This document shows positions 2,549 to 63,967 of a stretch of DNA of 64,000 bases, piece after piece (position 1 is the stretch's first letter; each line of letters starts with the position of its first letter). The position numbers and the translations under genes are program-made. The notes under the pieces are model-generated. The model was not told the DNA's origin, made no database searches, and worked only from the letters and a program-made list of their open reading frames with translations. The DNA comes from an uncultured Pseudomonadales bacterium (GTDB lineage: Bacteria; Patescibacteriota; Microgenomatia; UBA1400; UBA12108): positions 3,019 to 67,018 of the forward strand of contig CAYFZD010000001.1 in NCBI GenBank assembly GCA_964347565.1, written 5' to 3'.

Positions 2549-3169
2549 ATGTACAAGAAATATCGAACGTCTATATATTTTGTATTAGGATGTCTGACTG
2601 GGATTGGGTTGACTTTATTCGGACCATATGTCAGAAAGCAATTGCTGTCTAATCCTGAAACCAAATTTAATACCTTCCATAGTTCTCGTGCTTCTTTTAG
2701 TTTTCAACATCCCAACGATTTTCCCATTACACCGTTATCTGACCAATCCATATATCAGTTTGCAGACGAAAACTATATCGAATGGATCAATCTAGGCACC
2801 CTTGATTTCACACCAAATGCTCCATCAATGGGGGAAGGATTTCTTATAGTTAAAAGAATCCCCTGTATGATTACGGGAACTTACGAGGAACTTATTTTGC
2901 AAGAATACAAGGACTTAATAGCTGGGTGGAAAAGGATTGATAATAGAGCAGATACAACTCTCCCGATAATTGTAAAAACAAAATTGGGCAACAAAGATGC
3001 CTACAAAATTACAAATAATAATCCAGATACAACTGGAACTTTTGACAATACAAGCTACGAAATTGATACGTTTAGTCCGTGTCTACGATATCGACTCTAT
3101 ATAACACCCAGAGATAAAGAACGTACTAAGCAGATGGAAGAAATCTTAAAAACTTTTAAGTTTGAATAA
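2549..3169 (+). CDS. Hypothetical protein with N-terminal TM anchor
   Basis: 206-aa ORF with one N-terminal hydrophobic helix and no recognisable motifs. Visibly AT-richer than flanking gmd/uxs. Confidence 0.45.
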   Translation: MYKKYRTSIYFVLGCLTGIGLTLFGPYVRKQLLSNPETKFNTFHSSRASFSFQHPNDFPITPLSDQSIYQFADENYIEWINLGTLDFTPNAPSMGEGFLIVKRIPCMITGTYEELILQEYKDLIAGWKRIDNRADTTLPIIVKTKLGNKDAYKITNNNPDTTGTFDNTSYEIDTFSPCLRYRLYITPRDKERTKQMEEILKTFKFE

Positions 3170-3170
3170 T

Positions 3171-50576: not shown

Positions 50577-51347
50577 CTAAATCCGCTGACCACCATTCAC
50601 ATTTAACGTATGTCCCGTAATAAAGCTAGAAAGATCAGAAACTAAAAAGTAGACGGCATTAGCCACATCTTGTGGCGTGCCAAGTCGCTTTAATGGGATT
50701 TGCTTAGCCACATTGTTCTGTCTATCCTTACTCCAGCTCTCGGTCATACCGGTAGGGTAAATCGGTCCAGGTGCTACTACATTCACTCGTATACCCCGCT
50801 CAGACAACTGGCTGGCGTACAATTTCGAAAGCTGGATCACCCCAGCCTTAGCCACGGCATACCCAATTTTTATGGGAAGTTTAGTGGGGAGGGGTGAAGT
50901 AAGACCTTGCCCATTCAGAGAACCCATGTTGACTATCGATCCACCGTTTCTAATCAAAGGTGATAAGAGTCGACAAGCAAGTTGAGTGCTTAGTAAGTTT
51001 AGCTCAAGATCTAGGGTAAACGCCTTATCAAATATATCACCGGGTAAGGTCGCATGGCTACCTCCGGCATTATTCACTAAAATATCTATTGATCCGACAT
51101 CTTTTCTAACTTCTTTCTCTAAACGCTTTATATCCTGACCCTTAGTGATGTCGGACACATACCACCACACCCTTACTTTATATTTAGAGACAAATACTTT
51201 CACAATATCTCTTAATTTCAAATCATTGCGAGCAATCAGAACGAGGTCACAACCCTCTGCTGCTAGTTTCTCTGCGATCGCCAAACCAATACCTGAGCTT
51301 GCACCCGTCACCAACGCAACCTTACCATTAAGCGTCTGTATCTTCAT
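50577..51347 (-). CDS. SDR-family oxidoreductase (short-chain dehydrogenase/reductase)
   Basis: KVALVTGASSGIGLAIA Rossmann motif and classical SDR length (256 aa). Confidence 0.85.
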   Translation of the reverse strand: MKIQTLNGKVALVTGASSGIGLAIAEKLAAEGCDLVLIARNDLKLRDIVKVFVSKYKVRVWWYVSDITKGQDIKRLEKEVRKDVGSIDILVNNAGGSHATLPGDIFDKAFTLDLELNLLSTQLACRLLSPLIRNGGSIVNMGSLNGQGLTSPLPTKLPIKIGYAVAKAGVIQLSKLYASQLSERGIRVNVVAPGPIYPTGMTESWSKDRQNNVAKQIPLKRLGTPQDVANAVYFLVSDLSSFITGHTLNVNGGQRI

Positions 51348-52285
51348 TTTTTTACCCCTACTATTTTATCGATCACATAAACTGGTCGGTTCTTTACCTC
51401 CTCAACCAGCACTTGGATATATTTACCCAGTATTCCCATGCCAAACAGTAATACATTTCCCAGGAAAAACATCGCCAGCAATAAAGTCGGCAGTGTCTCG
51501 TATGGTATTCGCCAAAACGAATGATATCCAACATAAATTACAACCAATGTCACTGACAAGCAAACAAGGAACAAACTCGCATACATCAATAAGTCTAGTA
51601 ATAGGTAAGAAAACCCATAAATTCCTCTCTCTGCGTACTTAAAGTAAGAAATCCAATTATAGGCACTGGACCCATATAATCGTTGTTTTCTATGGTATTT
51701 CACAAACGCAACTTTAAATCCAATCCAGACACGCAAGCCGCGGAAAAAACGAAATTTTTCCGGTAAAGTTCTCAAGGCATCAAGCGCTTTGCGATCGAGC
51801 AAAGAAAACTCGGATGTATTCACAGGAATATCTAAATCTGAAATTCTTTTAAAAATATAGTAAAAAGCTCGCCTTAAAAGCGTCGTAAAAATATCTTCTT
51901 GAGTATTGAGGTATCGCCCTGCTACTATATTGTAGCCCTGTTCCCATTTCTTAATAAATTTTAAGATCAACTCAGGGGGATCTTGTAGATCACATGGGAG
52001 TATCACTATCGCTTCACCAACTGCATTGTGCATCAGGGCAGCAACAGAAGCCTCAAATCCAAAGTTGCGAGACAGAAACACTCCACGGGCAGTCTTGTCT
52101 TTTTTTATGACATTAAGGATCTTTCTGCGTGTTTCATCCGTGCTACCATTATCGACAAATAAGAACTGAAAAATATAATCAGGAGCTTTCTTTAAAATTG
52201 CCTGAGTTATATTATAAGTGCGCTCTACATTTTCCTCCTCATTAAAGCACGGAATTCCAATGGTTACTATCTTTTTAGCTTTCAT
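51344..52285 (-). CDS. GT2 polyprenol-phosphate glycosyltransferase (GtrB/ArnC-like) with C-terminal TM helices
   Basis: VTIGIPCFNEEENV, FVDNGSTDETR and LPCDLQDPP motifs, plus two C-terminal hydrophobic helices. ATGA overlap with the SDR. Confidence 0.8.
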   Translation of the reverse strand: MKAKKIVTIGIPCFNEEENVERTYNITQAILKKAPDYIFQFLFVDNGSTDETRRKILNVIKKDKTARGVFLSRNFGFEASVAALMHNAVGEAIVILPCDLQDPPELILKFIKKWEQGYNIVAGRYLNTQEDIFTTLLRRAFYYIFKRISDLDIPVNTSEFSLLDRKALDALRTLPEKFRFFRGLRVWIGFKVAFVKYHRKQRLYGSSAYNWISYFKYAERGIYGFSYLLLDLLMYASLFLVCLSVTLVVIYVGYHSFWRIPYETLPTLLLAMFFLGNVLLFGMGILGKYIQVLVEEVKNRPVYVIDKIVGVKK

Positions 52286-53808
52286 AGTGCTGTTTTCCTT
52301 TTAATAACCGCCCATTCATCGACAACTATTATATTGTCAAAGTCAAAACCACCTCGCTTCATCCGCTCAATAATACAAAGATCAAGATCAGGATCTTGCT
52401 GACTATAATTAATCGAATGAAAACGCCGATCAATAGTCTCCTTATCATTATATCTCAAAACAACTGTACTGACGCTATCGATCCCCATGGGATAATAGTA
52501 CATTTTGTGATCGTGTAAATTGTACGAAATTGCCTCAGGCACACTCAAAGTTGCCTCATCACCCACTGCCTCACGCAAACGCCTGCGGAAATCGAGCGAT
52601 AACGCTGATTTTTGATACTGATAGCGAACACCTTGTATTAGTTTTTTTGCCGCAATAGTTGGTCTCTCATTTATCTTTAAAGTCGCTGGGTTTATCCACA
52701 TCGTAAACATAATCGCTAAACCAATTAGCGCGGCCTGAATTCTAGGTCTATTATTCAACTTACTTAGTCCGATCAGACTAATCCAAATTAAAGGGACAAA
52801 GTATCCAATATGATAATGTGTTGACCATCCAATTTTCTCAGCACCTCCTACCGTAACAAGCACATTTGGCCCAAGCAAAAGCATCATTGGAAAGATGAGT
52901 CGAACATTGATCAGTGCAAATACCCCCATAGCCAAAAAATTAACTATCAGGAATATTTGTGTCCCCGGTTCTGCCAACCGCAACCAGACACTCCTTAAAA
53001 GACTACCCAAGCCATGTCCAAAAAGACTACCCAGCGAACTAGTTTGTGTTGAACCAAGAGGGAAATGTCTCTGAATATAAGCAGTTGAAATTGCCCCAAA
53101 TCCAAGCAAAGCAATCGCTAAGATAGATATCCTTCGATCAAATTTTTTATAAATCCACATATAACTACATAACATAATAAAAATTGTAATCCCATATATT
53201 TCATTCGTGCTAGCTGCCAATATACTAGCTAAAAACACAAGGGCATAATTAATTTTTGACTTATCTAGCAGCAGGATCAAGATGGCACTAAAAGGCAAGA
53301 AAAATCGATTAAAATATAGCTGACCTGTCAATCCTTGATCCCACAGCGGGTGCTGCATAACCAAAAGTACAAAAAAGGCAGACAAAGCAATGCTAAATTT
53401 CTTTTGACGAGCCAATATATAGGCAAAGACGAGAATAGAAGTATAAATACCAGCGTGGAGTACGGCAATCATTAGGGGAATATCCATCATCCGAGCGAGC
53501 GGGATCAAGAGGTAGGCAATAAAATAGTGGTGACCCCATGGAGTATCCGTGAATTTTGACTCTAAATCCATCGAACAAACTTCTGCTGCTGGCTTATACC
53601 ACACGTGGTCAATTGATTCTGTAGTAGAGGTGTAGTATGTAGTCTGCATTGTTAGCGTCTGCTTGAAGTTGTGTAGCACCTGCGCTACAAATGCCGTATC
53701 ACCAACCTGATTTTTAATATTCAAGAAAAAGAGGAAATAACTAAGAACGCCCCATAAAAAAAATGCAATCAAGGCAACAACAGTTTTCTCCTGAAAAACT
53801 TTCTTCAT
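52282..53808 (-). CDS. Polytopic membrane protein (508 aa), paralog of 49030-50556; GtrC-position partner of upstream GT2
   Basis: N-terminal loop DTAFVAQVLHNFKQTLTMQT...EVCSMDLESKFTDTPWGHHYFIAYLL. ATGA overlaps on both sides. Confidence 0.55.
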   Translation of the reverse strand: MKKVFQEKTVVALIAFFLWGVLSYFLFFLNIKNQVGDTAFVAQVLHNFKQTLTMQTTYYTSTTESIDHVWYKPAAEVCSMDLESKFTDTPWGHHYFIAYLLIPLARMMDIPLMIAVLHAGIYTSILVFAYILARQKKFSIALSAFFVLLVMQHPLWDQGLTGQLYFNRFFLPFSAILILLLDKSKINYALVFLASILAASTNEIYGITIFIMLCSYMWIYKKFDRRISILAIALLGFGAISTAYIQRHFPLGSTQTSSLGSLFGHGLGSLLRSVWLRLAEPGTQIFLIVNFLAMGVFALINVRLIFPMMLLLGPNVLVTVGGAEKIGWSTHYHIGYFVPLIWISLIGLSKLNNRPRIQAALIGLAIMFTMWINPATLKINERPTIAAKKLIQGVRYQYQKSALSLDFRRRLREAVGDEATLSVPEAISYNLHDHKMYYYPMGIDSVSTVVLRYNDKETIDRRFHSINYSQQDPDLDLCIIERMKRGGFDFDNIIVVDEWAVIKRKTAL

Positions 53809-54776
53809 GATTCAAGCATTTTTTTGTACCAACGATATATCGATGGTAGTTCTTTTTTTAGATTACTCTTTGGAGTCCATTTAATCCTGTCGTTGATCTT
53901 GGTAAAGTCCAGTGACTGGTAAGGAATTTCATTGGCTGCGGAACTCAACATTTTGACAGAAATTTTTCTTCGAAATACTTCCTCAGCAATCTTTATCACT
54001 TCTTTCACATTAAGGGTTTCTTTTGAACCAAAATTAAAAGCTTCACCTCGCACCTGATCAAAGTTATTCATAATTTGAAGATATCCCCTAGCCACGTCCT
54101 TGACATAAAGATAATCACGTACGTAGGTGCCATCACTACGTAACTCAAGTGGTTGTTTATGCACAAGAGACTTCATAATTCCGGGGATAATACGCGAAAG
54201 ATTCAAGTCGCCTTCTCCATAAATATTACCAAAACGAGTTGTTACAACTGGTAAGCCATAGGTTTGCACATACGAAGTGCAGATCAAATCAGCTGCAGAC
54301 TTTGATACTTCATACGGGTGATCACCCTGTAGTCGGTCAGTCTCCTTATATTTCCCCTCATTCAGCTTACCGTAAGCCTTATCCGACGAAGCGACTATGA
54401 TGCCTCTTACCGTTTTTACCTGTCTACATGCTTCGAGGATTGTTGCAGTCCCCATAATATTTGTATCCAATGTATACATTGGATCAACTAACGCTACCTC
54501 AACAATTGGTTGGGCTGCTAAATGCAAAACGTATTCTATATTAAATCTTGTAATAAGATTTAATATCCCTTCGTAGTTTCGTACATCAACTTGTGCTGTA
54601 GTTACTTTTTGGTCTAAATGTCGGCTAAAAAAGTAGGATTTAGGTTCATTCATAATCGTTGTAGCCACTACCTGCGCGCCTGTCATTACCAATTGGTCCA
54701 CTACATGTGATCCAACAAATCCGGTGCCGCCAGTAACCAACACTCTTTTATCGTTTATCATTACCAAACCTTCCAC
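53805..54776 (-). CDS. rfbG: CDP-glucose 4,6-dehydratase
   Basis: KRVLVTGGTGFVGSHV. HLAAQPIVEVALVDPMYTLDTNIMGT, SDKAYG and HPYEVSKSAADL align with Yersinia/Salmonella DdhB as recalled from memory. Adjacent to rfbF. Confidence 0.7.
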   Translation of the reverse strand: MEGLVMINDKRVLVTGGTGFVGSHVVDQLVMTGAQVVATTIMNEPKSYFFSRHLDQKVTTAQVDVRNYEGILNLITRFNIEYVLHLAAQPIVEVALVDPMYTLDTNIMGTATILEACRQVKTVRGIIVASSDKAYGKLNEGKYKETDRLQGDHPYEVSKSAADLICTSYVQTYGLPVVTTRFGNIYGEGDLNLSRIIPGIMKSLVHKQPLELRSDGTYVRDYLYVKDVARGYLQIMNNFDQVRGEAFNFGSKETLNVKEVIKIAEEVFRRKISVKMLSSAANEIPYQSLDFTKINDRIKWTPKSNLKKELPSIYRWYKKMLES

Positions 54777-55537
54777 GGGGCAATCCCGCTATTCCAAATT
54801 CTATTTAACTCCTCAACTTCTTTAATTGTATCCATGCAAAACCAAAAACCCGTATGTTTATACATCGACAATTCGTTTCTTTTCGTAAGCCTACGTAAAG
54901 CAGGGTGTTCGGTTTCACCGGCACGTAAGTAGGTAAATATTCGCCTATCAAATACCATAAAACCTCCGTTAACCCAATCATTGAGACGTGGTTTTTCGTT
55001 GAAGTTATTGATATGGTTATTTTTTGTTACAGTAATGGCGCCATATTTTGACCGTGGGTGAATACCTGTAAGAGTACCGATTGTTTTCTGTCTAGCATGA
55101 AATTTAAGTAATCTAGAAATATTTACATCACATACCCCATCGCCATATGTCAACATAAAATAAGGGTCTTCTTTGGGAATGTACTGTCTACACTTGAGAA
55201 TGCGCTCACCCGGCTCGGTTTCTAGACCAGTATCTACAAAAGTAATCTTAAAATCATCAACTTCTGAACGATTCTCGAGATGATATTCGACCTGATGCGT
55301 TTTGGACTCTAAAGTAAAATCAGAAGTAAATGCTTTCTGGTTTAAGAAAAAATCTTTGATGTAATCAGCCTTGTAACCAAGTGCAAGTATAAATTCATTA
55401 AATCCGTGCTTACTATAGGTCTTCATGATATGCCAAAGAATTGGCTTGTTGCCCACATACACCATCGGTTTTGGCTTAAACTCAGTTTCTTCTTTAAGCC
55501 GAGTTCCTGCTCCTCCGCACAGAATTATCACTTTCAT
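54761..55537 (-). CDS. rfbF: Glucose-1-phosphate cytidylyltransferase
   Basis: MKVIILCGGAGTRLKEETEFKPKPMV...GNKPILWHIM is the canonical RfbF N-terminus. 258 aa. Confidence 0.85.
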   Translation of the reverse strand: MKVIILCGGAGTRLKEETEFKPKPMVYVGNKPILWHIMKTYSKHGFNEFILALGYKADYIKDFFLNQKAFTSDFTLESKTHQVEYHLENRSEVDDFKITFVDTGLETEPGERILKCRQYIPKEDPYFMLTYGDGVCDVNISRLLKFHARQKTIGTLTGIHPRSKYGAITVTKNNHINNFNEKPRLNDWVNGGFMVFDRRIFTYLRAGETEHPALRRLTKRNELSMYKHTGFWFCMDTIKEVEELNRIWNSGIAPWKVW

Positions 55538-55580
55538 TAAACTCCTTGATTTGGGCAGAGATAAAACGTCCTAAAAGGAT

Positions 55581-56906
55581 ATGATAATTATGACACGAAT
55601 ACATCAGGGTAGCAATTGGCTGTATAATTACACATCGATGAACAAAAAATCTGCATTTATTGCCGGAGAAACATACGTTCCGGTTTCTGGTAAGGTCTTC
55701 GATCGGGCTGAAATCGATAATGCCATTGAAGCCGCGGAGGACGGATGGTGGACAGAGGGCAGGTGGGCCAAAAAGTTTGAAGGTCAGTTTGGTCAGTACC
55801 TGGGGGCAAATCACGTCACTTTGGTCAACTCAGGCTCTAGTGCCAATCTCAATGCCCTCGCCTCACTTACTTCAAAGATTTGGGGCGACAGCCAGCTCAA
55901 ACCAGGGGATGAGTACATTACTTGTGCAGTAGGGTTTCCTACGACAGTTAACCCAGGAGTTCAGCATGGACTGGTGCCGGTATTTGTTGATGCTGAGCTC
56001 GACACTTTTAACATCGACGCTGCCAAGATAGAGGCGGCCATAACCCCCAAAACTAAACTCCTCATGTTCGCACATACTCTCGGCAAGCCCTACAACCTGG
56101 AGATTATTATGGCTCTCCGCAAAAAGTACAAATTATGGGTGATAGAGGATTGCTGTGATGCCTTGGGCTCAACTTACGATAAGAAATTGGTAGGAACATT
56201 TGGTGATATTGCCACCTTCTCGTTTTATCCAGCTCATCAAATTACCATGGGTGAGGGGGGTGCTATAGTAACCAACAATCCTCTCCTACATAGAGAAATT
56301 CGCAAGTTTCGTGACTGGGGCCGTGACTGCTATTGTGATCCCGGTAAAGACAATACTTGCGGACGTAGATTCAAGTGGAAACTAGGCGAGCTACCTTACG
56401 GCTACGATCACAAGTATATTTACAGTCAAATCGGGTACAACCTCAAACTTACCGATTTTGGCCCGGCCATCGGGGTAGCTCAACTGGCCAAACTCCCCAA
56501 GTTTATCAAAAGACGAAAAGTGAACTATCAGACTCTCTATAAATTTTTCTCGCAATACCCCGATTATTTCCATCTTTTAACTACCGGTGACAAAGAAGAT
56601 CCTTGTTGGTTTGGTTTCCCGCTCCTGGTCAAAGAAACCGCCCCCTTTACGCGTAATGATTTAACCGAGTACCTTGAACTACATAAAATTGGTACCAGAA
56701 ATATCTTTTCAGGAAATTTGCTGAGGCATCCCGCCTACACTGATATAAAGAAAAAACGCGTAATGGGCAAAATGACGGTCGCTGACCGAGTAATGAATCA
56801 GGCTTGTTGGTTAGGAGTCTTTCCCGGCATCCAGGCACCGCAAATGAGATACGTTCTGAAAACACTTAGTGAATTTATAAAACAAATACCAACCCTTACC
56901 GCTTAA
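55581..56906 (+). CDS. rfbH: CDP-6-deoxy-D-xylo-4-hexulose-3-dehydrase (E1; PMP-dependent DegT-family)
   Basis: Near-colinear to RfbH/DdhC as recalled: TLVNSGSSANL, ITCAVGFPTTVNP, IEDCCDALG, FSFYPAHQITMGEGG (His replaces the aminotransferase Lys), FRDWGRDCYCDPGKDNTCG. The true start may be Met 55590. Confidence 0.85.
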   Translation: MIIMTRIHQGSNWLYNYTSMNKKSAFIAGETYVPVSGKVFDRAEIDNAIEAAEDGWWTEGRWAKKFEGQFGQYLGANHVTLVNSGSSANLNALASLTSKIWGDSQLKPGDEYITCAVGFPTTVNPGVQHGLVPVFVDAELDTFNIDAAKIEAAITPKTKLLMFAHTLGKPYNLEIIMALRKKYKLWVIEDCCDALGSTYDKKLVGTFGDIATFSFYPAHQITMGEGGAIVTNNPLLHREIRKFRDWGRDCYCDPGKDNTCGRRFKWKLGELPYGYDHKYIYSQIGYNLKLTDFGPAIGVAQLAKLPKFIKRRKVNYQTLYKFFSQYPDYFHLLTTGDKEDPCWFGFPLLVKETAPFTRNDLTEYLELHKIGTRNIFSGNLLRHPAYTDIKKKRVMGKMTVADRVMNQACWLGVFPGIQAPQMRYVLKTLSEFIKQIPTLTA

Positions 56907-58656
56907 TACAACTATAAATAACTGTTTCGGAGAAATATATTTCGCGTTGTAGGTAAGGATCTTTAAAAGCTTTCCCTAAGTATTCACAGTTAGAATCCTG
57001 GTAAATTTTAAGTGATGGAATAGAGACATCATTTGGCTTATCTGCAAGCACGATGACTTTTTGGTGGGACATGCTACGCTGAAGATTGTCTTTAATCGCA
57101 AGACTAATCTTTGAGTCGTTCATAATTGCCTCATATTGACGAGAAGTTACTCCGTCGTAGACCGGCAACCCATTGAGATAGCCCATGTATCCCACATAAG
57201 TGACAGGTCCCCTATAAAGTGTAATGACGGCGTCATATGGAGTAAAGAGTTTCTTGTACTCGCGGACCATGTTTGACCAGTTATCTCGTCCTACGAGCGC
57301 TAGACCGGCTTTGTACTCACCCAAATAATAAGGATTAACCCCAGGCGTTTTGAGCGTTGGATGTGGTCTCCAGGAAAAATCGGTTTTCAAGCTAGTGATA
57401 CTCCCCAAGAATACCACTCCCAAAAGCAAATATTTATACTTCATGACCCATTTATCGGTGACTTTAAAGTTCCATGGTTCATTTATGATTACGATCAGGG
57501 TCATCAAGTTGAGCGCAATATAGTAGCGGGCGTACCCCACTAGGTGCGACCACAGCAAATAGGTCAGTACCAGCAAACCATACTTCAGCGATCTTTTTCT
57601 AATCATCAACCAAATCGAGAGTCCATAACCAATAATTGGGATTGGGGCATAGAATATTTTGGCAAATGTTGAGACAATGCCTTCGGCGTATCTATCTCCA
57701 AATTGACCAATAATTGGCCAAACTACTGTTTGCCACATAGTTTGGGGGCCAAACAGAGTTTGAGCAAAGTTGCCTGGAGCGTATAGCGGTGATTTGAAAA
57801 TCCCATTAAATAATCCTGAGAGAGCATTGCCGGTTTCCAAGTATAACCGTACGAAAAATAAGCTTGACACGAGCCCGTAAGCGACAACTTTACCCCACTC
57901 AATGTTCTTGCGATTTAGCATGGCGTAATAAATCAAAATTGGCGCTACAAACACGGAGTTCGACTGTTTCATAAGGATCGCACTGAGCGTCATGATCATG
58001 GCAAAAGTCTTATTTGTCTTCTTGGCCATGAATAAATACAATGCTTCTAGACAAAAAGCGAGAGATCCGTAGTCACCCATCAGGGTTCCACTCACCCCCA
58101 GTAAGTGAGGGATAAAAGGGAGGATCAAAAAGAGAGCTGTTAGACATAGTCTTTGTGTCTTACTTCTTAGCTCTGCTGACAACCTGAGATAGAGTGAAAC
58201 CATCCAAATGCTCGTGAGCAGATAGAATAGCCAAATGGTAGCTCTCAGCCCCAAAGTATATAGAAATGGAGTGTAGTTCATATCCAGTGGCAAGTAGAAA
58301 TACTGCAGAAAATTCATCGGCATGAAATTGGCGTTCTGCCACAATCGATTAGCGTAATCACCCCACATCATATGCGCGGCCAAGTCGTCATATGTGGGGT
58401 ATACGAGCGGGAAGCGAATGAGGGTGATCAGGAGGTATGGAATGATCACGAGCCATCCCTTGCCGATATTCTCAACTCTAAAGTTGGAGTAGTATTTCTT
58501 CACCCCGAGACCTGCAATCAGCAAGCACACTACTCGCAGTATCACTATCTCTAGCGTGTTGGGTGTCCAGCTGGTTAGCACCGAAATGGTGGACAGGTAG
58601 AGAATGTTAGAAATACTGAGTACAAACAGAGCAAACGGCACGATACTTAGAACCAT
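56896..58656 (-). CDS. Polytopic membrane protein with C-terminal soluble domain (possible glycan polymerase / GT-C-like)
   Basis: About 12 hydrophobic helices in the first ~430 aa. Loop YPTYDDLAAHMMWGDY loosely resembles the HD-motif family C. C-terminal ~150 aa are hydrophilic. Confidence 0.45.
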   Translation of the reverse strand: MVLSIVPFALFVLSISNILYLSTISVLTSWTPNTLEIVILRVVCLLIAGLGVKKYYSNFRVENIGKGWLVIIPYLLITLIRFPLVYPTYDDLAAHMMWGDYANRLWQNANFMPMNFLQYFYLPLDMNYTPFLYTLGLRATIWLFYLLTSIWMVSLYLRLSAELRSKTQRLCLTALFLILPFIPHLLGVSGTLMGDYGSLAFCLEALYLFMAKKTNKTFAMIMTLSAILMKQSNSVFVAPILIYYAMLNRKNIEWGKVVAYGLVSSLFFVRLYLETGNALSGLFNGIFKSPLYAPGNFAQTLFGPQTMWQTVVWPIIGQFGDRYAEGIVSTFAKIFYAPIPIIGYGLSIWLMIRKRSLKYGLLVLTYLLWSHLVGYARYYIALNLMTLIVIINEPWNFKVTDKWVMKYKYLLLGVVFLGSITSLKTDFSWRPHPTLKTPGVNPYYLGEYKAGLALVGRDNWSNMVREYKKLFTPYDAVITLYRGPVTYVGYMGYLNGLPVYDGVTSRQYEAIMNDSKISLAIKDNLQRSMSHQKVIVLADKPNDVSIPSLKIYQDSNCEYLGKAFKDPYLQREIYFSETVIYSCIKR

Positions 58657-59306
58657 TTCACAACTTTCTGGTTGATCCCAAAACGTTTCAAATATTGATC
58701 ATCTTTTTTACTAACGTTAGGAGTTATCGCGTATATCGTGTCTGGATCCATCAGTTTAACCATCATTTCCACCCCTGCTTGATTAGGATTCATTTCATAC
58801 CCATAGCTATTAAACGGGGTAATCACCCTGCAGCGTTTAACGTTTAACCTACCCAGTACTCCCGTGGTATCGACCAGGTTGTTGGTCACCACACTACTCT
58901 TCATCGAGAGGCTCTGCATTGTCCCCAGATATCCTTTGATTATCGCTGTATTTTTGAGAGCTACAGCCAGGTCGGTAACTTGATCGGTCAGGGCAATCAT
59001 TTGTGGATGGTACTTAAGTATTTGGAGGATTTCCATTTGGACCAGTATCCCTACTCCGGTCGCAAAATCTTTTTTCAACAGTTTAATCAGATTAAATTTG
59101 TTCCACCATGCCATCTTGATCAGTGCGCTAGGCGATAGCTTGAGAGCTCGCTTTACAATTGCTCCAATATTGCCATGCTCTGTCACGTCGCGCACAAAAG
59201 CCGCCATATTCGGCACCACAAAATTTTGGTTTTTAGCATACGATTTGTCTTTCTCCCAAAAGACAAGTTTGGTAGATTCAATTTGCTTTTGCATATGCCT
59301 CCCCAA
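58647..59306 (-). CDS. Hypothetical protein
   Basis: 219-aa ORF with no recognised motifs. Overlaps neighbouring genes at both ends, which suggests it is real and co-translated. Confidence 0.4.
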   Translation of the reverse strand: MGRHMQKQIESTKLVFWEKDKSYAKNQNFVVPNMAAFVRDVTEHGNIGAIVKRALKLSPSALIKMAWWNKFNLIKLLKKDFATGVGILVQMEILQILKYHPQMIALTDQVTDLAVALKNTAIIKGYLGTMQSLSMKSSVVTNNLVDTTGVLGRLNVKRCRVITPFNSYGYEMNPNQAGVEMMVKLMDPDTIYAITPNVSKKDDQYLKRFGINQKVVKWF

Positions 59307-61164
59307 TCATCTGCTCAACACAGCGAGCAAACTCCATATCGTTCGCAATTTTTGCTTTTGCATTAGTTAGCGAATCCACAAACAATTGATCCTCAATATA
59401 ATAGGCTTCTCCCCCGGACTTGGGATTTAAGTTATAAACCGAGTGGTTTAGCGGGATGGCGTAGTAGGGGATTGTCTCGGTTCTTTTGCCGGTTTTGATG
59501 GTGAGCTTTTTGTCGCTAAAGCGGATACTGCCTTCGCTCCCCACGATCTCGTATTCGATTGTCATGACGGGGTACCCCGCGATACTCCAGTTAGCATTTA
59601 GTTTTCCCGCAATTCCGCTTTTATGTTTTAGGACCAACTGAGCTTTGTCCTCAACTTCATTGCCGTATAGGTAATCTAGTTTGGATCGACTTACCCTTGC
59701 CTGCCCAAAGAGATACTGAACTATTGAAAATGCATGCGGGCCTGGGTTAGCCAGGACTCCTCCTCCCGACAGATTCTTCTTAAACAACCATCCTTTCTTA
59801 GGACCAAATACTTCGCTATGGCGCAAATTAATTGTGTAGTTTTTGATCGCGCCAATCCTTTTTTGCTCGATCAACGCTTTGGTGTACTCTATCTCTCGTT
59901 TATAGACCCAAAAGTATCCGGCCACGCTCCCTGGATATTTTTTGCCCCAATCACTGGACTTCACGTAAACAGGTTTTTCGACAAAAAACGGAACTTGTTT
60001 CGCCAAACAAAGATCAATTATTTCTTTGTGGGCAAAAGTCGGGGTACAGATAAATACAGCATCCACTGACTCATGTTTGAATGCTTCTTGCAGTGAGGTA
60101 TAGAAGCTTGCCTGGATACCCATACTTAGAGCCGTTTGTCCAAGCGATACATCTTGATCCACTATCGCCACAATGTTGGCGTCTTTTATCACCGATAGTG
60201 CTGTTGAGTGCATGATTCCCATTTTTCCCAGTCCTACCATAATGATCTTTTTGCCCGCTTTTTTCTTGCTCCCTAAATATTTTGCCACCCCTTCACTAGT
60301 GCTAGTGAGATTTAGTTTCAGATCCTTTATCGCTTGGCGTGGGTTACAGTTCGTATTTTGAGTCGAACCCAAGACGTTATCCACGTTAATAGATAAGCCT
60401 GGGATTAGCTTCGTCGCTAGATAGACCAGCGCTAACCCAAGGAGAGCGGGAATATGCACTATTGGTTTAGAGATCCCTACTTGTTGTTGGATCAGTCTCA
60501 CCAAGTTATCAAAAGTAATTTTCTTGGGGTCACCCAGGTCATAAATTTTATGGATACTCTTTGGGATTTCAAGTGTCTTAATAATCGAGCGAGCGAGATC
60601 TACCACATCGATTGGGTATAGCTCCCATTTCCCGTTACCAATCACAGGAACAAACGGCAGTTTCTCCGTGTATTTACGTATGGTTTGGAATAGTGTTTCT
60701 TCGCCTTCTCCATACACCAAGCTTGGTTTCAGCGTTGTCCAGTCGATGTCTTTTTGCTGGATAATTTCGTCACTCTGACGTTTTGATTCTCCATACACTC
60801 CGCGAAATCTGATCTTAGTTGATTGTGAACTAATATTGATCACTCTGTTGCTCTTAAACTTACCTTCTCTCGCCAGCCTCACGACATTGTGGGCACCACT
60901 TAAGTTGACGCTGTAACTCAGCTTGGGGTGATATTTATTGGCCGCCAAATGCACAATCGTCTCGACCTTCCCTAATTTCTCAGAGTAGCTCTCATATTCG
61001 GTAATATCCGCATATAACATGCTGAGATTATGATGGGGAGCAAAAGGAGGAATGGTACCAGGCCTAGCCATGGCCAGAACCCCATAATCCTGTACCAGGA
61101 GTTCCTCTACAACTGTTCTCCCGATAAATCCCGTCGCACCTGTCACTAAAACCAGTTGTTTCAT
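59278..61164 (-). CDS. Fusion: NAD-dependent epimerase/dehydratase-like SDR domain + Gfo/Idh/MocA-family oxidoreductase domain
   Basis: N-terminal LVLVTGATGFIGRTVV (extended SDR, about 300 aa). C-terminal IIMVGLGKMGIMHSTAL...IVAIVDQD...FICTPTFAHKEI...EKP (Gfo/Idh/MocA Rossmann plus EKP motif). Confidence 0.7.
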   Translation of the reverse strand: MKQLVLVTGATGFIGRTVVEELLVQDYGVLAMARPGTIPPFAPHHNLSMLYADITEYESYSEKLGKVETIVHLAANKYHPKLSYSVNLSGAHNVVRLAREGKFKSNRVINISSQSTKIRFRGVYGESKRQSDEIIQQKDIDWTTLKPSLVYGEGEETLFQTIRKYTEKLPFVPVIGNGKWELYPIDVVDLARSIIKTLEIPKSIHKIYDLGDPKKITFDNLVRLIQQQVGISKPIVHIPALLGLALVYLATKLIPGLSINVDNVLGSTQNTNCNPRQAIKDLKLNLTSTSEGVAKYLGSKKKAGKKIIMVGLGKMGIMHSTALSVIKDANIVAIVDQDVSLGQTALSMGIQASFYTSLQEAFKHESVDAVFICTPTFAHKEIIDLCLAKQVPFFVEKPVYVKSSDWGKKYPGSVAGYFWVYKREIEYTKALIEQKRIGAIKNYTINLRHSEVFGPKKGWLFKKNLSGGGVLANPGPHAFSIVQYLFGQARVSRSKLDYLYGNEVEDKAQLVLKHKSGIAGKLNANWSIAGYPVMTIEYEIVGSEGSIRFSDKKLTIKTGKRTETIPYYAIPLNHSVYNLNPKSGGEAYYIEDQLFVDSLTNAKAKIANDMEFARCVEQMIGEAYAKAN

Positions 61165-62090
61165 TTTTGTGCGACCAAAAGCAAATTATCTGCGACTTTC
61201 TTAGATTTTGGAGAGTCGATTGTGTTTGCCAACAGTATCTGAGCGTAGGTAATACCCATCATCTTCATATTGAGCTCTGCCCCTGCCCGGGTGACAAAAT
61301 CAAACCACAGCTTGGGTAGATTGTCCCTCACAATGCGGTAGATTAAATTAACAATACCGCTGCGGAATTTTTGGATACTCCCGGAAAAAATTTTGTAAAA
61401 AACAGGGTTATATATCTTGTCTACTCGCGCTTGTTTGGCACCATAAATACTCTGTCCCAGCTTGGTTAGCTCGTCGTGGGTATATTCGTGCTCATGTGGA
61501 GGCACGAGCCGCAAAGAGGGAGTGTCATTTGGGTTTAAGCCGTAAACATTTTGAGACTTGTTGCGCTCCGGGGTACCTATAAATGCCATGCCCCCCGTTT
61601 TTAGTAATCGCTTACTTTCAGCCACAAATTTGTAACCATCGTCTTTGTTGACGTGCTCGATTACGTGGGAGGAGATAACAAAGTCCATCGACCCTGCTCG
61701 CAGGGAAGTTTTCTGGGCACTATCATGAATAAATTTGACTCCGTACTGCCCGTATGATGATTTAGCATAACTAATGCACGCTTCACTATAGTCAGTCCCG
61801 ACTATTTCCATGTCCGGGAAAATTGACTGCATATAAGCGAGGAGTCGCCCGCTCCCAGAGCCCAGCTCTACCAGTCGCAATCCTTTAGTGCTTGCTAGCT
61901 TGCGCAAGTAACGTATCACAGACAAGTAGATGGGTAGGACGGTCCCAAAATGGAATAGGGGACTTCGCAGTTCGCTCCCGGCACCCTCGCGCGCAACCCG
62001 GCTGTCCATCGCAGGAATTGCGTGGGTAGTATGCCACTGCCAGTACTCACTAGCCTCATTACTTAAGTCTGAATATTTTATCTTTAACAT
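61161..62090 (-). CDS. Class I SAM-dependent methyltransferase
   Basis: Motif I LRLVELGSGSGRLLAYM and post-I MDFVISSHVIEHV. ATGA overlap with the upstream gene. Confidence 0.7.
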   Translation of the reverse strand: MLKIKYSDLSNEASEYWQWHTTHAIPAMDSRVAREGAGSELRSPLFHFGTVLPIYLSVIRYLRKLASTKGLRLVELGSGSGRLLAYMQSIFPDMEIVGTDYSEACISYAKSSYGQYGVKFIHDSAQKTSLRAGSMDFVISSHVIEHVNKDDGYKFVAESKRLLKTGGMAFIGTPERNKSQNVYGLNPNDTPSLRLVPPHEHEYTHDELTKLGQSIYGAKQARVDKIYNPVFYKIFSGSIQKFRSGIVNLIYRIVRDNLPKLWFDFVTRAGAELNMKMMGITYAQILLANTIDSPKSKKVADNLLLVAQK

Positions 62091-62100
62091 AATATAGTGA

Positions 62101-62805
62101 TTATTCTACAAATTTGTATTTTAACAAGGTGTAAATCGCATGTAAGCCATCGCGCCAATTGATTTTTTTACCTTCGGCTACTTTTCTTCCTCGATAGGAT
62201 ATCTCCACTTCATAAATAGGTATATTTTTCTTCGCTATTTTTGCTGTAATTTCTGGGCAAAAATCGAACTTTTTACATACCAGGGAAACAGAATCAAGTA
62301 AGCTGGCGTCAAACACCTTATAACCAGTTGCTTCATCAGTAATGTTTGTCGTATACAGTATGTTAGTTAGCCAGTTGATAAATTGTCCGCCAACATAAAA
62401 TACCCAGCCTCCATGATGCATCTTGGAGTGAGTCAACATTCTCGACCCATAAACAACCCTGGCTTTACCTTGTAATATAGGTGCAAGTAGTTTGGGATAG
62501 TCGCTCGGACTATATTCTAGGTCAGCATCCTGAACCAAGATGATGTCGCCCGTTGACATCTCAAAACCATGTCGTAGTGCCGCCCCCTTACCTTTGTTAT
62601 ATGGCTGGTAATAGACTCTTATGTTCTTGTTTCTCAATCTCCTTAAAATATCACGAGTTTTGTCAGTCGACCCATCATCCACCACAATAATCTCTTTGTG
62701 AAGTCCAAGAGTATTAGACTGTATCACTCTTTTGATAATTTTCGCTATTGTCTGCTCTTCGTTGTAGACAGGGATGATGATAGAAACAGTTTTATATTTT
62801 TCCAT
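62101..62805 (-). CDS. GT2 glycosyltransferase (DPM1-like)
   Basis: VSIIIPVYNEEQTI, IVVDDGSTDKT and VQDADLEYSP motifs. Confidence 0.8.
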   Translation of the reverse strand: MEKYKTVSIIIPVYNEEQTIAKIIKRVIQSNTLGLHKEIIVVDDGSTDKTRDILRRLRNKNIRVYYQPYNKGKGAALRHGFEMSTGDIILVQDADLEYSPSDYPKLLAPILQGKARVVYGSRMLTHSKMHHGGWVFYVGGQFINWLTNILYTTNITDEATGYKVFDASLLDSVSLVCKKFDFCPEITAKIAKKNIPIYEVEISYRGRKVAEGKKINWRDGLHAIYTLLKYKFVE

Positions 62806-62887
62806 GCAGATATTGTACTATAGGAGGCACCATGTCAGCTAATCGCTAATTTGACAACCAGCTATCAATAGGTGTTAATTAAACATA

Positions 62888-63967
62888 ATGCCAAAAAATA
62901 AGTATCGTCCATCCATTCTCCATCGTCCACTACTCATCACGGTCGCCTTAGCCGTCGTTCTCTTGCTTGTGACCGCCAATATCTCGACCACCCACAACTT
63001 TACTCCCAACACCTCAAGTGTCTTAGGCGAAGGAGAGGAGAGTGAAGAACAAAAGCAAGCTGAGGAAGCAGCCAAAGAGTCTGCCAAGCAAGCGGAAGAA
63101 ATCCAAAAAGAAAGTACTAAACAAGCAGAAGAACTGTCAAAGCAACAACAAGAGCAACAGAAAGAAACTGTCGAGACCACTCCTGCGGGCAGTTCGCGCC
63201 CCTCCAGTTTATCCGTGAACGCAATCAAATCAAAGACAGAAACAATCTCTCCTAGTGGCCTCAAAATGAAAACAGAGACTGAAGGTAGTAAGCAAGAGAC
63301 CGAGATTGAAACCGCCGATGGACAAAAAATCAAAACCAAAATTGAAGACGATGGCACCACCAAGATAGAAATCGAAAATGGCACTCTCAAATTAGTCTAT
63401 CGCATGGAAAACGGGCAATTAGCTCTCAGGGTAGAAGACGAGGAAGGTGACGAGGTAGAAATAGAAGACGACGAACTCGATGAACTAGAGAATGAAGTCG
63501 AAAACGAGCTAGGGGACGATGACCTCAAACTTACTCCAACCACCAATAATCAACTAGCGCTCACTAGCAATCGAGTGGCAGCTATCACCGGCTACCCACT
63601 CTCTATCAACGTTGAAACCAAGCAACTCACCATCACTACTCCCCAGGGACAGCGAGTGGTCACAGTGCTACCCGACGAAGCGGTCGCCAATCTGCTCGCC
63701 ACCGGCCTCATCAATCAGGTCGAGTCAACCCTTACTGATACTGATATACAGGGTGAATTGGGGGCACTCAGCGGGGTTGTCGGTATTGATATTCGCGACG
63801 GCGAGATCGTCTATAAAATAGACGGGGTCAAAACCCATCGATTGCTGGGCTTGATTCCCGTTGATACTCAAACCACGGCTTTTGTCTCTGCCGACACAGG
63901 CACTGTGGTCGCTCAAGAACGCTCTATCCTCGCCAATATCATCGATTTCCTCTCCCCCACACTCTAA
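62888..63967 (+). CDS. Membrane-anchored/secreted acidic, Ser/Thr-rich coiled-coil protein (hypothetical)
   Basis: N-terminal TM or signal anchor (LLITVALAVVLLLVTA). An E/K/Q-rich low-complexity coiled-coil region, then an acidic block (EDEEGDEVEIEDDELDELENEVENE), then a Thr-rich C-terminal domain. Confidence 0.5.
   Translation: MPKNKYRPSILHRPLLITVALAVVLLLVTANISTTHNFTPNTSSVLGEGEESEEQKQAEEAAKESAKQAEEIQKESTKQAEELSKQQQEQQKETVETTPAGSSRPSSLSVNAIKSKTETISPSGLKMKTETEGSKQETEIETADGQKIKTKIEDDGTTKIEIENGTLKLVYRMENGQLALRVEDEEGDEVEIEDDELDELENEVENELGDDDLKLTPTTNNQLALTSNRVAAITGYPLSINVETKQLTITTPQGQRVVTVLPDEAVANLLATGLINQVESTLTDTDIQGELGALSGVVGIDIRDGEIVYKIDGVKTHRLLGLIPVDTQTTAFVSADTGTVVAQERSILANIIDFLSPTL

Follow-up and report, generated by a model that had tools for sequence, protein, structure and literature searches.

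The closest described system for the rfb genes discussed here is the CDP-3,6-dideoxyhexose pathway of Yersinia and Salmonella, in which an E1 enzyme (DdhC/AscC/RfbH) is paired with an E3 reductase (DdhD/AscD). In this pathway RfbF, RfbG and RfbH act in that order, E1 carries a catalytic His and a C-X57-C-X-C-X7-C [2Fe-2S] motif, and the transferases are O-antigen Leloir enzymes. A second system is the spinosyn forosamine pathway, whose E1-type 3-dehydrase, SpnQ, functions without a dedicated reductase; its substrate is of the dTDP-2,6-dideoxy type and its host is an actinomycete secondary-metabolite cluster. SpnQ is homologous to E1 and shares its Fe-S motif, no E3 gene is present in the SpnQ cluster, and activity is obtained with either ferredoxin/ferredoxin reductase or flavodoxin/flavodoxin reductase (PMC8987622). 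The window analysed here, a 64-kb stretch of DNA, shares with the Yersinia/Salmonella pathway the reaction order as well as the His and Fe-S motif of E1. However, its cassette has neither E3 nor equivalents of Prt, Abe, Tyv or AscE/F, its RfbG is divergent and scores under the family cut-off, and it is coupled to a GT2 resembling ArnC and to a DUF2079-like membrane protein. Compared to SpnQ, the window RfbH is of CDP type and much nearer to E1.

We read the interval as two functionally separate adjacent cassettes, A (50577-56906) and B (56896-62805), within a very large cell-surface glycan island of a Patescibacteria-type genome. A 628-aa SDR-Gfo/Idh/MocA fusion is then a member of a separate, widely conserved, uncharacterised surface-sugar gene module, not the missing step of the rfb pathway. 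We assign this reading a probability of about 0.6. From the two-cassette model it follows that the fusion is neither the E3 nor the 4-reductase that cassette A lacks. All genes described in an earlier note on this DNA are present where that note had placed them. The features are as follows.

50577-51347, minus strand: classical SDR, 256 aa (adh_short_C2, 185 bits)
51344-52285, minus strand: GT2 of ArnC/PgfS type, 313 aa, polyprenyl-phosphate glycosyltransferase-like
52282-53808, minus strand: polytopic membrane protein, 508 aa, putative lipid-linked-sugar transferase (DUF2079-like paralogue)
53805-54776, minus strand: divergent CDP-glucose 4,6-dehydratase, rfbG-like (best family TIGR02622)
54761-55537, minus strand: rfbF, glucose-1-phosphate cytidylyltransferase (TIGR02623, E 2e-82)
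55581-56906, plus strand: rfbH/ddhC, E1-type CDP-4-keto-6-deoxyglucose 3-dehydrase (NF011936, 3bcx)
56896-58656, minus strand: 586-aa polytopic membrane protein whose C-terminal part, about 190 aa, is a soluble domain (conserved position)
58647-59306, minus strand: partner protein, 215-219 aa, TIM-barrel-like (database form starts at 59294)
59278-61164, minus strand: fusion of an NDUFA9/HpnA-like SDR (1 to about 300) and a Gfo/Idh/MocA dehydrogenase (about 305-628), by Pfam
61161-62090, minus strand: class I SAM methyltransferase of the fusion module, 309 aa (Methyltransf_11, 67 bits)
62101-62805, minus strand: soluble GT2, 234 aa, polyprenyl/dolichyl-phosphate sugar synthase-like (NCBIfam models)

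The rfbF, rfbG and rfbH genes, which had been called well conserved, are all present. RfbF matched TIGR02623 over its full length (residues 1-258, model positions 1-255 of 255) with 276.5 bits, just under the 300.25-bit equivalog cut-off. The rfbG-like protein is divergent, scoring 201.7 bits with TIGR02622, below the cut-off of 278.45, and the earlier description therefore overstates its conservation. Among solved structures its best match is the CDP-glucose 4,6-dehydratase 1rkx (E 5e-38), with which the SDK and YxxxK motifs align (SSDKAYG with TSDKCYD, PYEVSK with PYSNSK). In a Roizmanbacteria locus (L083), rfbG is also located beside rfbF, and its product is 58% identical to that of the window. 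The rfbG-like gene probably starts at the ATG at 54761; its product then has 318 aa, the length called in locus L117. RfbH scored 621 bits with NF011936, over the cut-off of 423, and 492 bits over its full length with the Y. pseudotuberculosis E1 structure 3bcx; its probable start is 55638, because homologues have about 418 aa. In the alignment to 3bcx, FYPAHQITMGEGG is opposite FYPAHHITMGEGG, and the aminotransferase Lys is therefore replaced by the catalytic His, in agreement with the signature noted earlier. The [2Fe-2S] motif is intact, with all four cysteines present (Cys192-X57-Cys250-X-Cys252-X7-Cys260).

It had also been stated that no E3 reductase is recognisable in the window, and this was borne out. 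No Fer2, FAD_binding_6 or NAD_binding_1 match was detected in a Pfam scan that covered every ORF of 150 aa or more in the 64 kb (56 in total), no ferredoxin-type cysteine motif was found by a six-frame motif scan, and a search of the flanking sequence for ddhD found no E3 in the 3 kb beyond the right end (L125). The window does not stand alone in this: five other Patescibacteria rfbH loci were sampled, and none had E3 within 10 kb of rfbH. An E1-type enzyme that works without E3 has already been characterised in SpnQ. Alternatively, RfbH without E3 might not deoxygenate its substrate at all, being ColD-like or transaminating and yielding a 4-amino or other product. The missing E3, both here and near other Patescibacteria rfbH genes, would fit such a role, and SpnQ does transaminate when its reductase is absent (PMC8987622). 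However, ColD has no Fe-S cluster, and E1 shows no transaminase activity under conditions where SpnQ transaminates (PMC8987622). The window RfbH retains the four cysteines and the catalytic His and matches authentic E1 from end to end, and the conserved cluster argues for electron transfer, which makes a non-deoxygenating RfbH very improbable.

With regard to the 4-reductase or epimerase, also reported as missing, no gene of the prt/abe/tyv/asc type was recognisable in cassette A. Extended SDRs are, however, present at 633-1574 and 3162-4124, far from cassette A and beside Gmd. The 256-aa classical SDR, the last gene of the rfb-associated cassette, is co-inherited with it in L084 and L117 and is the sole candidate ketoreductase inside cassette A; it reached no equivalog cut-off. 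We know of no classical SDR that acts as an NDP-4-ketohexose reductase.

The 313-aa GT2 matched the PgfS (213 bits) and ArnC (100 bits) models over its full length, both under cut-off, and has two C-terminal hydrophobic helices, with hydrophobic segments at residues 222-288. An ArnC/PgfS-like GT2 was detected nearby in four of the five other Patescibacteria rfbH loci: homologues of 311-314 aa with 29-35% identity are near rfbH in L082, L122 and L123/124, and the one in L083, matched by Pfam only, is about 8 kb from rfbH. The 508-aa protein, with about eight or more hydrophobic segments, is a paralogue of a DUF2079-like protein at 49030-50556. It had no Pfam match of its own and is 45% identical to a protein of L001 that matches DUF2079; a 37% identical homologue adjoins rfbH in L102. 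In cassette A, RfbF would produce CDP-glucose, the divergent RfbG would convert it to CDP-4-keto-6-deoxyglucose, and RfbH, with PMP and its [2Fe-2S] cluster, would remove the 3-OH, probably with electrons from a general reductase system as for SpnQ rather than from a dedicated E3. The resulting 4-keto-3,6-dideoxy sugar might be reduced by the classical SDR. Gene content and recurrence suggest that the GT2 would then load the sugar onto polyprenyl phosphate and that the DUF2079-like protein would transfer it outside the membrane.

The fusion is a real single ORF, as the earlier note had it, with an identical (100%) database entry and more than 100 full-length homologues. Pfam places an Epimerase domain at residues 5-211 and GFO_IDH_MocA at residues 306-554, and the AF2 model has a mean pLDDT of 90.7. 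The statement that it has no characterised homologue also stood; the SDR-Gfo pairing is nevertheless not rare, with more than 270 homologues, mainly in Patescibacteria. Invariant residues include GxxGxxG, S112, Y124 and K128 in the SDR domain and GLGKMG and E396-K397-P398 in the Gfo domain, and a hydrophobic helix is present at the domain junction (approximately residues 231-257). In PDB profile searches, the best match of the SDR domain (residues 1-290) was NDUFA9 (6x89_A9, E 1e-30), and that of the Gfo domain was GenD2 (6nor, E 5e-37); Foldseek also matched the Gfo domain to 6nor (TMt approximately 0.78) and to 6a3i (TMt 0.79). The SDR domain scored 48.8 bits with the HpnA model. The nearest solved relatives of the Gfo domain are GenD2/KanD2 and levoglucosan, scyllo-inositol and glycoside 3-dehydrogenases, not nucleotide-sugar enzymes; other near structures are a glucuronide 3-dehydrogenase and NAD-dependent sulfoquinovosidases. 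These structures are suggestive of C-3 oxidation. Grouping with inositol or glucose-fructose oxidoreductases had been named as evidence against a role in the rfb pathway, and the position of the Gfo domain next to glycoside and inositol dehydrogenases comes close to it.

The earlier note proposed that the fusion may complete the pathway or divert it to a non-canonical deoxysugar. On that reading it would supply the missing CDP-3,6-dideoxyhexose chemistry, with the SDR domain serving as 4-ketoreductase or epimerase and the Gfo domain adding an oxidoreductase step. Indeed, a 4-ketoreductase is needed, cassette A has no extended SDR, and the Ser-Tyr-Lys triad of the fusion is intact. The pathway is also incomplete by the enterobacterial standard. 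We examined 20 loci with a single-ORF fusion. As the note had asked, the fusion does recur beside rfbH, in L084, L085 and, independently, L102, but not in the other 17 of the 20 loci, and two of the three are 77-79% identical relatives of the window. The 17 include relatives whose fusions are 63-74% identical. In these relatives (L001 and L119), the order GT2-(methyltransferase)-fusion-partner-586-aa membrane protein is kept, and the position held in the window by rfbH-rfbF-rfbG-DUF2079-GT2-SDR contains a flavoprotein, a DUF2079 protein and a methyltransferase, i.e., a cassette swap. Conversely, the fusion is absent from the five other Patescibacteria rfbH loci, which lack E3 as well. In addition, rfbH and the fusion operon are convergently transcribed, the closest matches of the Gfo domain are enzymes that act on glycosides and cyclitols, and the SDR domain is nearest to NDUFA9 rather than RmlD, Prt or Abe (rmlD model, only 23.7 bits). 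Taken together, these data argue against completion or diversion of the rfb pathway by the fusion, which we consider unlikely. The window group and L102, whose fusion is 34% identical, are unrelated lineages, and in both rfbH is 3-4 kb from the fusion; this proximity counts against full independence of the cassettes and is more than nothing.

The usual neighbours of the fusion include a GT2 similar to polyprenyl-phosphate-sugar synthases, a methyltransferase and polytopic membrane proteins. The partner gene is directly downstream of it in 19 of the 20 loci. The partner family has 398 cluster representatives and no family model, and the window protein had no Pfam, NCBIfam or PDB sequence match; its AF2 model (mean pLDDT 87.8) gave weak TIM-barrel matches in Foldseek (TM-scores approximately 0.4). 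Archaea and many bacteria have partner forms of about 300 aa, encoded after an unfused Gfo homologue. Bathyarchaeia, Nitrosopumilus, Rhodobacteraceae and Sphingomonas are among the groups in which this Gfo-partner pair is conserved with neither the SDR domain nor rfb genes. The 586-aa membrane protein directly follows the partner gene in L001, L004, L084, L085 and L119, and YPTYDDLAAH is invariant in its first loop (alignment A4); it is a putative GT-C-like transferase of the fusion module, with no Pfam or PDB sequence match and no detectable GT-C similarity. The methyltransferase adjoins the fusion or partner gene in 7/20 loci (6/19 non-redundant). Half of the loci (10/20) have a homologue of the 234-aa GT2 no more than about 1 kb upstream of the fusion; the 234-aa GT2 has no membrane segment, and its best NCBIfam models are AglJ (125 bits), ArnC, PgfS and PpgS, all under cut-off.

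These GT2 models, together with an SDR domain closest to the membrane-associated NDUFA9, HpnA and OleD families, the junction helix and a flippase-like gene adjoining the Gfo-partner pair in Nitrosopumilus, are suggestive of a membrane-linked substrate. A different possibility is that a soluble nucleotide sugar, such as UDP- or GDP-hexose, is the substrate of the fusion and its partner and undergoes C-3 oxidation, isomerisation or epimerisation, and reduction, following a WbpB/GenD2 logic and giving an unusual donor for the 234-aa GT2. Nucleotide-sugar 3-dehydrogenases do exist among Gfo/Idh/MocA enzymes; the archaeal UDP-GlcNAc 3-dehydrogenase model matched the Rossmann part (51 bits), and 3q2i, the entry for WlbA, scored 80 bits. 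DegT-type aminotransferases are a few kb from the fusion in L004, L089, L097 and L119, and NDP-hexose C-methyltransferases are neighbours in L035 and L038. In the latter (Ruegeria), the Gfo-partner pair is beside such a methyltransferase, as would also suit a role in deoxysugar synthesis, and a classical SDR; these neighbours point to nucleotide-sugar, not lipid-linked, chemistry. However, no nucleotidyltransferase is encoded in the core module, the enzymes most closely related to the Gfo domain use non-nucleotide sugars, and the NDUFA9/HpnA-like SDR, the hydrophobic helix and the Nitrosopumilus flippase-like neighbour all speak against a soluble substrate, which appears doubtful although it deserves some weight. 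The window also contains an NDP-hexose C-methyltransferase gene (42519-43703).

In the preferred reading, that of a separate surface-sugar module, the fusion may modify a sugar via a 3-keto intermediate. The DPM1/AglJ-like GT2 would form a lipid-linked hexose, the Gfo/Idh/MocA domain would oxidise a sugar hydroxyl, most likely at C-3, and the keto sugar, thus activated, would be the substrate of the TIM-barrel-like partner. Re-reduction would fall to the NDUFA9-like SDR domain, the methyltransferase would methylate the sugar, and the 586-aa membrane protein would transfer it.

GenD2/KanD2, levoglucosan dehydrogenase, DgpA and glucuronide 3-dehydrogenase are the best sequence and structure matches of fusion residues 305-628 and share the EKP motif, and several of these Gfo-family glycoside 3-dehydrogenases process the 3-keto sugar together with a TIM-barrel protein. 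In contrast to these enzymes, the window Gfo domain is fused to an SDR, is only 15-22% identical to them and reaches no curated family cut-off, and no sequence relationship could be detected between its partner and TIM barrels of the xylose-isomerase type. NDUFA9 (the 39-kDa complex I subunit) and HpnA-like SDRs best match residues 1-290; unlike them, the window SDR has a complete catalytic Ser-Tyr-Lys triad, shares its polypeptide with a second dehydrogenase and lies in a glycan locus. A further lead is provided by DprE1/DprE2, the decaprenyl-phospho-ribose 2'-epimerase, and by ArnC-ArnD-ArnT. DprE1 is a flavoenzyme without homology to cassette B, whose lipid-linked substrate is putative, and only the proposed logic would be common: a GT2 makes a polyprenyl-phosphate sugar, which is oxidised and reduced on the lipid and passed to a polytopic transferase.

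Eleven tightly packed genes fill 50.5-62.8 kb of the window. We divide them into cassette A (50577-56906), which carries the rfb genes, and cassette B (56896-62805), which carries the SDR-Gfo/Idh/MocA fusion and, directly downstream of it, a small protein here called the partner.

Genes of the interval, with identities obtained by family scan where so marked
50577-51347, minus strand: classical SDR, 256 aa (family scan)
51344-52285, minus strand: ArnC/PgfS-like GT2 (GT2_313) with two C-terminal hydrophobic helices (family scan)
52282-53808, minus strand: polytopic membrane protein, 508 aa
53805-54776, minus strand: rfbG-like extended SDR (family scan)
54761-55537, minus strand: rfbF (family scan)
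55581-56906, plus strand, opposite to rfbF and rfbG: rfbH (family scan)
56896-58656, minus strand: membrane protein, 586 aa
58647-59306, minus strand: partner, 219 aa, without family
59278-61164, minus strand: SDR-Gfo/Idh/MocA fusion, 628 aa (family scan)
61161-62090, minus strand: SAM methyltransferase (family scan)
62101-62805, minus strand: GT2, 234 aa (GT2_234) (family scan)

These ORF starts were set mechanically and are probably too long at 55581-55637 (RfbH), 54762-54776 (RfbG) and 59295-59306 (partner). Homologues and gene calls in other assemblies place the starts at 55638 for RfbH (~422 aa), 54761 for RfbG (318 aa) and 59294 for the partner (215 aa).

The earlier note had recognised rfbF, rfbG and rfbH as part of a CDP-3,6-dideoxyhexose pathway, and all three genes were found to be present. 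RfbH scored 621.4 bits against the curated equivalog NF011936, above its cut-off of 423, and could be aligned over its full length with the sequence of the Yersinia E1 (RfbH/ddhC) crystal structure, 3bcx (492 bits). This alignment bears out the signature His in the position of the aminotransferase Lys, FYPAHQITMGEGG being aligned to FYPAHHITMGEGG of E1. The [2Fe-2S] motif is complete (C192-X57-C250-X-C252-X7-C260), with all four residues aligned to the E1 cysteines. Agnihotri 2004 is reportedly a second source for the definition of this motif. The four-Cys definition used here, C-X57-C-X1-C-X7-C, was taken from PMC8987622. RfbF was best matched by TIGR02623 in a full-length alignment (276.5 bits, E 2e-82), just under the equivalog cut-off of 300.25, and the next-scoring family reached 85 bits. 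RfbG was more divergent: its best family, TIGR02622, scored 201.7 bits, below the cut-off of 278.45, and dTDP-glucose dehydratases scored nearly level with it. The best solved relative of RfbG was the CDP-glucose 4,6-dehydratase 1rkx, to which the SDK and YxxxK motifs align.

No E3 (ddhD-type reductase) had been seen in the window, and our searches agree: Pfam detected none of the E3 domains Fer2, FAD_binding_6 and NAD_binding_1 in the 56 window ORFs of at least 150 aa, and a six-frame motif scan of the window found no ferredoxin-type cysteine motif. A canonical E3 gene and terminal reductase just outside the window had been named beforehand as evidence against a partial pathway; no E3 was found in the 3 kb past the right end, as covered by a second assembly of the region. 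In addition, no terminal extended-SDR 4-reductase or epimerase adjoins E1. The only other oxidoreductase of cassette A is the classical SDR, for which a PDB search at a threshold as strict as E 1e-40 gave no match. Two extended SDRs (633-1574 and 3162-4124) are 50 kb distant, next to Gmd. Compared with the canonical ddhABCD plus prt/abe/tyv/asc pathway, the E3 is absent from the window and the adjoining 3 kb, and the terminal SDR from the neighbourhood of E1. The fusion was considered as a substitute for E3 and ruled out, because it has no flavin or Fe-S domain.

Five other Patescibacteria rfbH loci were compared (L082, L083 on a complete Roizmanbacteria chromosome, L122, L123/124 and L102), whose RfbH proteins are 66-78% identical to that of the window. 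None of the five has an E3-like gene within 10 kb of rfbH. A GT2 of 307-314 aa is present in four of them, near rfbH in L082, L122 and L123/124, where it shares 29-35% identity with GT2_313 along the full length, and ~8 kb off in L083. As companions of rfbH we observed YerE-like TPP enzymes, split transketolase genes, or an RmlC-like protein with a 309-aa SDR (L083, L122 and L123/L124), suggesting yersiniose-like branched or ascarylose-like sugars, all without E3. We conclude that absence of E3 from the surroundings of rfbH is not special to the window and that an rfbFGH cassette without E3 is an ordinary Patescibacteria-type variant, the local norm. A literature search on DUF2079 and on Patescibacteria dideoxyhexose glycosylation returned nothing relevant. 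SpnQ is a characterised Fe-S 3-dehydrase of the E1 type that has no dedicated reductase and uses general ferredoxin or flavodoxin reductase pairs (PMC8987622).

The earlier note had further suggested that the fusion completes the dideoxyhexose pathway or diverts it to a non-canonical deoxysugar, and had asked whether the fusion recurs next to rfbH elsewhere. Twenty loci (19 non-redundant) with SDR and Gfo in one ORF were collected, their proteins being 28% to 79% identical to that of the window. A contig profile search with the full-length fusion alignment was dominated by the generic GLGKMG pattern, and the matches listed were mostly Gfo-only relatives, which were later useful for finding the partner family; a metagenome search with the SDR-and-linker alignment was more specific for the fusion. 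The partner directly follows the fusion in 19 of the 20 loci, and the remaining locus stops at a contig edge. Ten loci have a GT2_234-like gene within ~1 kb upstream of the fusion, seven have an adjoining methyltransferase and five the 586-aa membrane protein. Only three loci carry a true rfbH (at least 60% identity), two of them 77-79% relatives with the exact layout of the window and the third L102, whose fusion is 34% identical.

Completion of the pathway by the fusion is thus not supported, and the clearest cases against it are two loci that keep the fusion module without rfb genes, L001 (fusion 63% identical) and L119 (74%). Both retain GT2-(methyltransferase)-fusion-partner-586 aa as well as the flanking DUF2079, UDP-GlcNAc 2-epimerase and 757-aa GT genes, with an amine-oxidase-like flavoprotein, a DUF2079 protein and a methyltransferase in place of rfbH-rfbF-rfbG-508 aa-GT2_313-SDR256. 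The rfb genes are therefore part of a swappable cassette, which carries its own ArnC-like GT2 and DUF2079-like membrane protein, and the fusion belongs to the neighbouring conserved module, a widespread family. The flavoprotein genes (L001:14299-15567 and L119:14293-15567) overlap the end of the 586-aa gene, exactly at the position of rfbH in the window. UDP-galactopyranose mutase was ruled out as their identity, a PDB sequence search matching only amine-oxidase/phytoene-desaturase-like proteins.

The fusion itself is a real single ORF of 628 aa, as first read: a database entry is 100% identical to it, more than 100 homologues span its full length, and its AF2 model reaches a mean pLDDT of 90.7. 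Its Gfo part combines an N-terminal Rossmann with a C-terminal alpha/beta domain (PF01408, 61.5 bits, cut-off 24; PF22725, 69.2 bits, cut-off 27), and GLGKMG and E396-K397-P398 are invariant in 18 homologues, which places it in the Gfo/Idh/MocA family. The SDR part (PF01370, 74.8 bits) has a GxxGxxG motif and a Ser112-Tyr124-Lys128 triad, likewise invariant in 18 homologues. With these motifs kept, both halves look catalytically competent. A hydrophobic helix (residues ~231-257) lies at the junction of the two domains.

None of the curated NCBIfam models was reached by the fusion. In a profile search of solved structures, GenD2 (6nor, E 5e-37) was the clear best match for residues 302-633, and NDUFA9 (E 1e-30), the 39-kDa SDR subunit of complex I, was best for residues 8-258. 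The SDR part is nearest to NDUFA9, HpnA or OleD, not to GalE, RmlD or Prt (rmlD 23.7 bits, galE 22.5 bits). The top Foldseek ranks for the AF2 model were scyllo-inositol dehydrogenase, levoglucosan dehydrogenase, GenD2, KanD2, glucuronide 3-dehydrogenase and NAD-dependent sulfoquinovosidases, all of which oxidise a ring hydroxyl, mostly at C-3, of a non-nucleotide-linked sugar. A serious alternative is that fusion and partner act on a nucleotide sugar and not, as we prefer, on a lipid-linked sugar. Matches of the nucleotide-sugar type do occur: 3q2i, which we take to be WlbA, matches the Gfo part at 80 bits only, and NF040723 (archaeal UDP-GlcNAc 3-dehydrogenase) gives 51 bits against a cut-off of 450, in the Rossmann part only. 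Nevertheless, the fusion falls outside the nucleotide-sugar 3-dehydrogenases (WbpB/WlbA or UDP-GlcNAc type), its top PDB and Foldseek matches being GenD2 and the inositol and levoglucosan dehydrogenases.

The partner, in its short or long form, was matched by no Pfam or NCBIfam model. In its AF2 model (mean pLDDT 87.8) it folds much like an alpha/beta barrel, which TIM barrels match weakly (TM-scores ~0.4); among these are indole-glycerol-phosphate synthase scaffolds and, lower down, C-glycoside deglycosidase and allulose epimerase. An HMM built from the Patescibacteria forms detected an ORF of ~290-320 aa directly downstream of an unfused Gfo homologue in at least ~80 loci. Hosts of this long form are Bathyarchaeia, Nitrosopumilus, Verrucomicrobia, Rhodobacteraceae, Sphingomonas, Burkholderiales and Actinobacteria (examples are L007:11007-11897, L038:11084-11968, L033:11070-12005 and L048:11580-12515). 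Long forms contain the motifs GDNQFFGVNHxS, FMCTTHDR and FGASS, and the Patescibacteria partner is shorter by ~70 N-terminal and ~35 C-terminal residues. The family comprises 398 representatives at 50% clustering, and its profile had no significant match among PDB sequences (best, for the long form, an aldo-keto reductase, E 0.13). Neighbours of the Gfo-partner pair on its two flanks are a methyltransferase and a flippase-like protein in Nitrosopumilus, and an NDP-hexose C-methyltransferase and a classical SDR in Ruegeria (L038). This conserved pair, with a partner that has no family model, is the most interesting by-product of the analysis.

The 586-aa and 508-aa membrane proteins had no Pfam or PDB sequence match, and a profile of the 586-aa protein found nothing significant among PDB sequences. 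Taking a GT-C fold plus an acidic motif in the first extracytoplasmic loop as the mark of a GT-C enzyme, we find support for a putative GT-C role of both in numerous hydrophobic segments, a YDD motif that does not vary and a weak link to DUF2079. Two paralogous 508-aa proteins occur in the window (49030-50556, plus strand, and 52282-53808, minus strand). One has a 70% identical counterpart in L001 and a weak DUF2079 match; the other accompanies the rfb cassette, with 79% identity in L084, a close relative of the window. This suggests one transferase per sugar cassette. The best models for GT2_234 were AglJ, ArnC, PgfS and PpgS.

The window (1-64000) as a whole is a single glycan-biosynthesis island, with ~ten GT2 genes, five PMT_2/GT-C-like proteins, two PTPS_related membrane proteins, GT87- and PIG-V-like domains, a Wzx-like flippase, an ABC-2 transporter pair, Gmd, a pyruvyl transferase, a UDP-GlcNAc 2-epimerase and, at the left edge, a UDP-glucose dehydrogenase fragment. 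G+C falls from ~0.47-0.51 in 1-38000 to ~0.39-0.45 past ~38-40 kb, and gene orientation changes there from uniformly plus-strand to mixed, as would be expected if this part of the island were variable or laterally exchanged. An NDP-hexose C-methyltransferase (42519-43703, minus strand; Methyltransf_13 zinc ribbon and Methyltransf_14) lies ~10 kb from the rfb cassette, and its homologues (30% identity) directly adjoin the Gfo-partner pair in Ruegeria L038 and in L035. Its substrate could be the 4-keto product of RfbG or RfbH; alternatively, the enzyme could be tied to the fusion module. At 62888-63967 (plus strand) we observed a 359-aa protein without family match, which has a hydrophobic segment at its N-terminus and a long stretch of low complexity rich in Glu, Lys and Gln. 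An antisense ORF that overlaps it and is rich in Ser and Cys (62875-63390, minus strand) is probably an artefact of this composition.

For cassette A, homology would assign glucose-1-phosphate to CDP-glucose to RfbF, CDP-glucose to CDP-4-keto-6-deoxyglucose to RfbG, and CDP-4-keto-6-deoxyglucose to CDP-4-keto-3,6-dideoxyglucose to E1, which presumably receives electrons from a general reductase. The 4-keto sugar might then be reduced by the 256-aa SDR, a tentative assignment. As their recurrence suggests, the ArnC-like GT2 would move the sugar onto polyprenyl phosphate and the DUF2079-like protein would hand it to a surface acceptor. For cassette B, we propose that GT2_234 makes a lipid-linked hexose, that the Gfo domain of the fusion oxidises it, probably at C-3, and that the partner may act on the keto sugar, which the SDR domain would re-reduce; the methyltransferase would methylate the sugar and the 586-aa protein transfer it.

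The Patescibacteria, episymbionts of ultra-small size, probably contact their hosts through surface glycans, yet the chemistry of their glycans is, to our knowledge, almost entirely uncharacterised. Our analysis sets the ordinary part, rfbFGH without E3, apart from a conserved module in which the fusion and its partner are joined by the GT2, the methyltransferase and the membrane protein. It raises two testable questions: where E1 obtains its electrons in organisms whose redox metabolism is minimal, and what role is played by the Gfo-partner pair, conserved across bacteria and archaea with a partner that Pfam and NCBIfam do not cover. Answers would close gaps in the biochemistry of deoxysugars and lipid-linked sugars and would not overturn current concepts.

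The most far-reaching reading, to which we give roughly one chance in five, is that the Gfo enzyme and its TIM-barrel-like partner, with an NDUFA9-like SDR that is fused in Patescibacteria, form an undescribed ancient two- or three-component system, ranging from Bathyarchaeia and Nitrosopumilus to Proteobacteria. Its role would be to remodel a polyprenyl-phosphate-linked or glycan-bound sugar via a 3-keto intermediate and to feed GT-C-type transferases, in parallel with E1-type 3-deoxygenation that proceeds in Patescibacteria without any E3. Such a system would be an analogue of DprE1/DprE2 with different cofactors, and the scheme for cassette B resembles the logic of both DprE1/DprE2 and ArnC-ArnD-ArnT.
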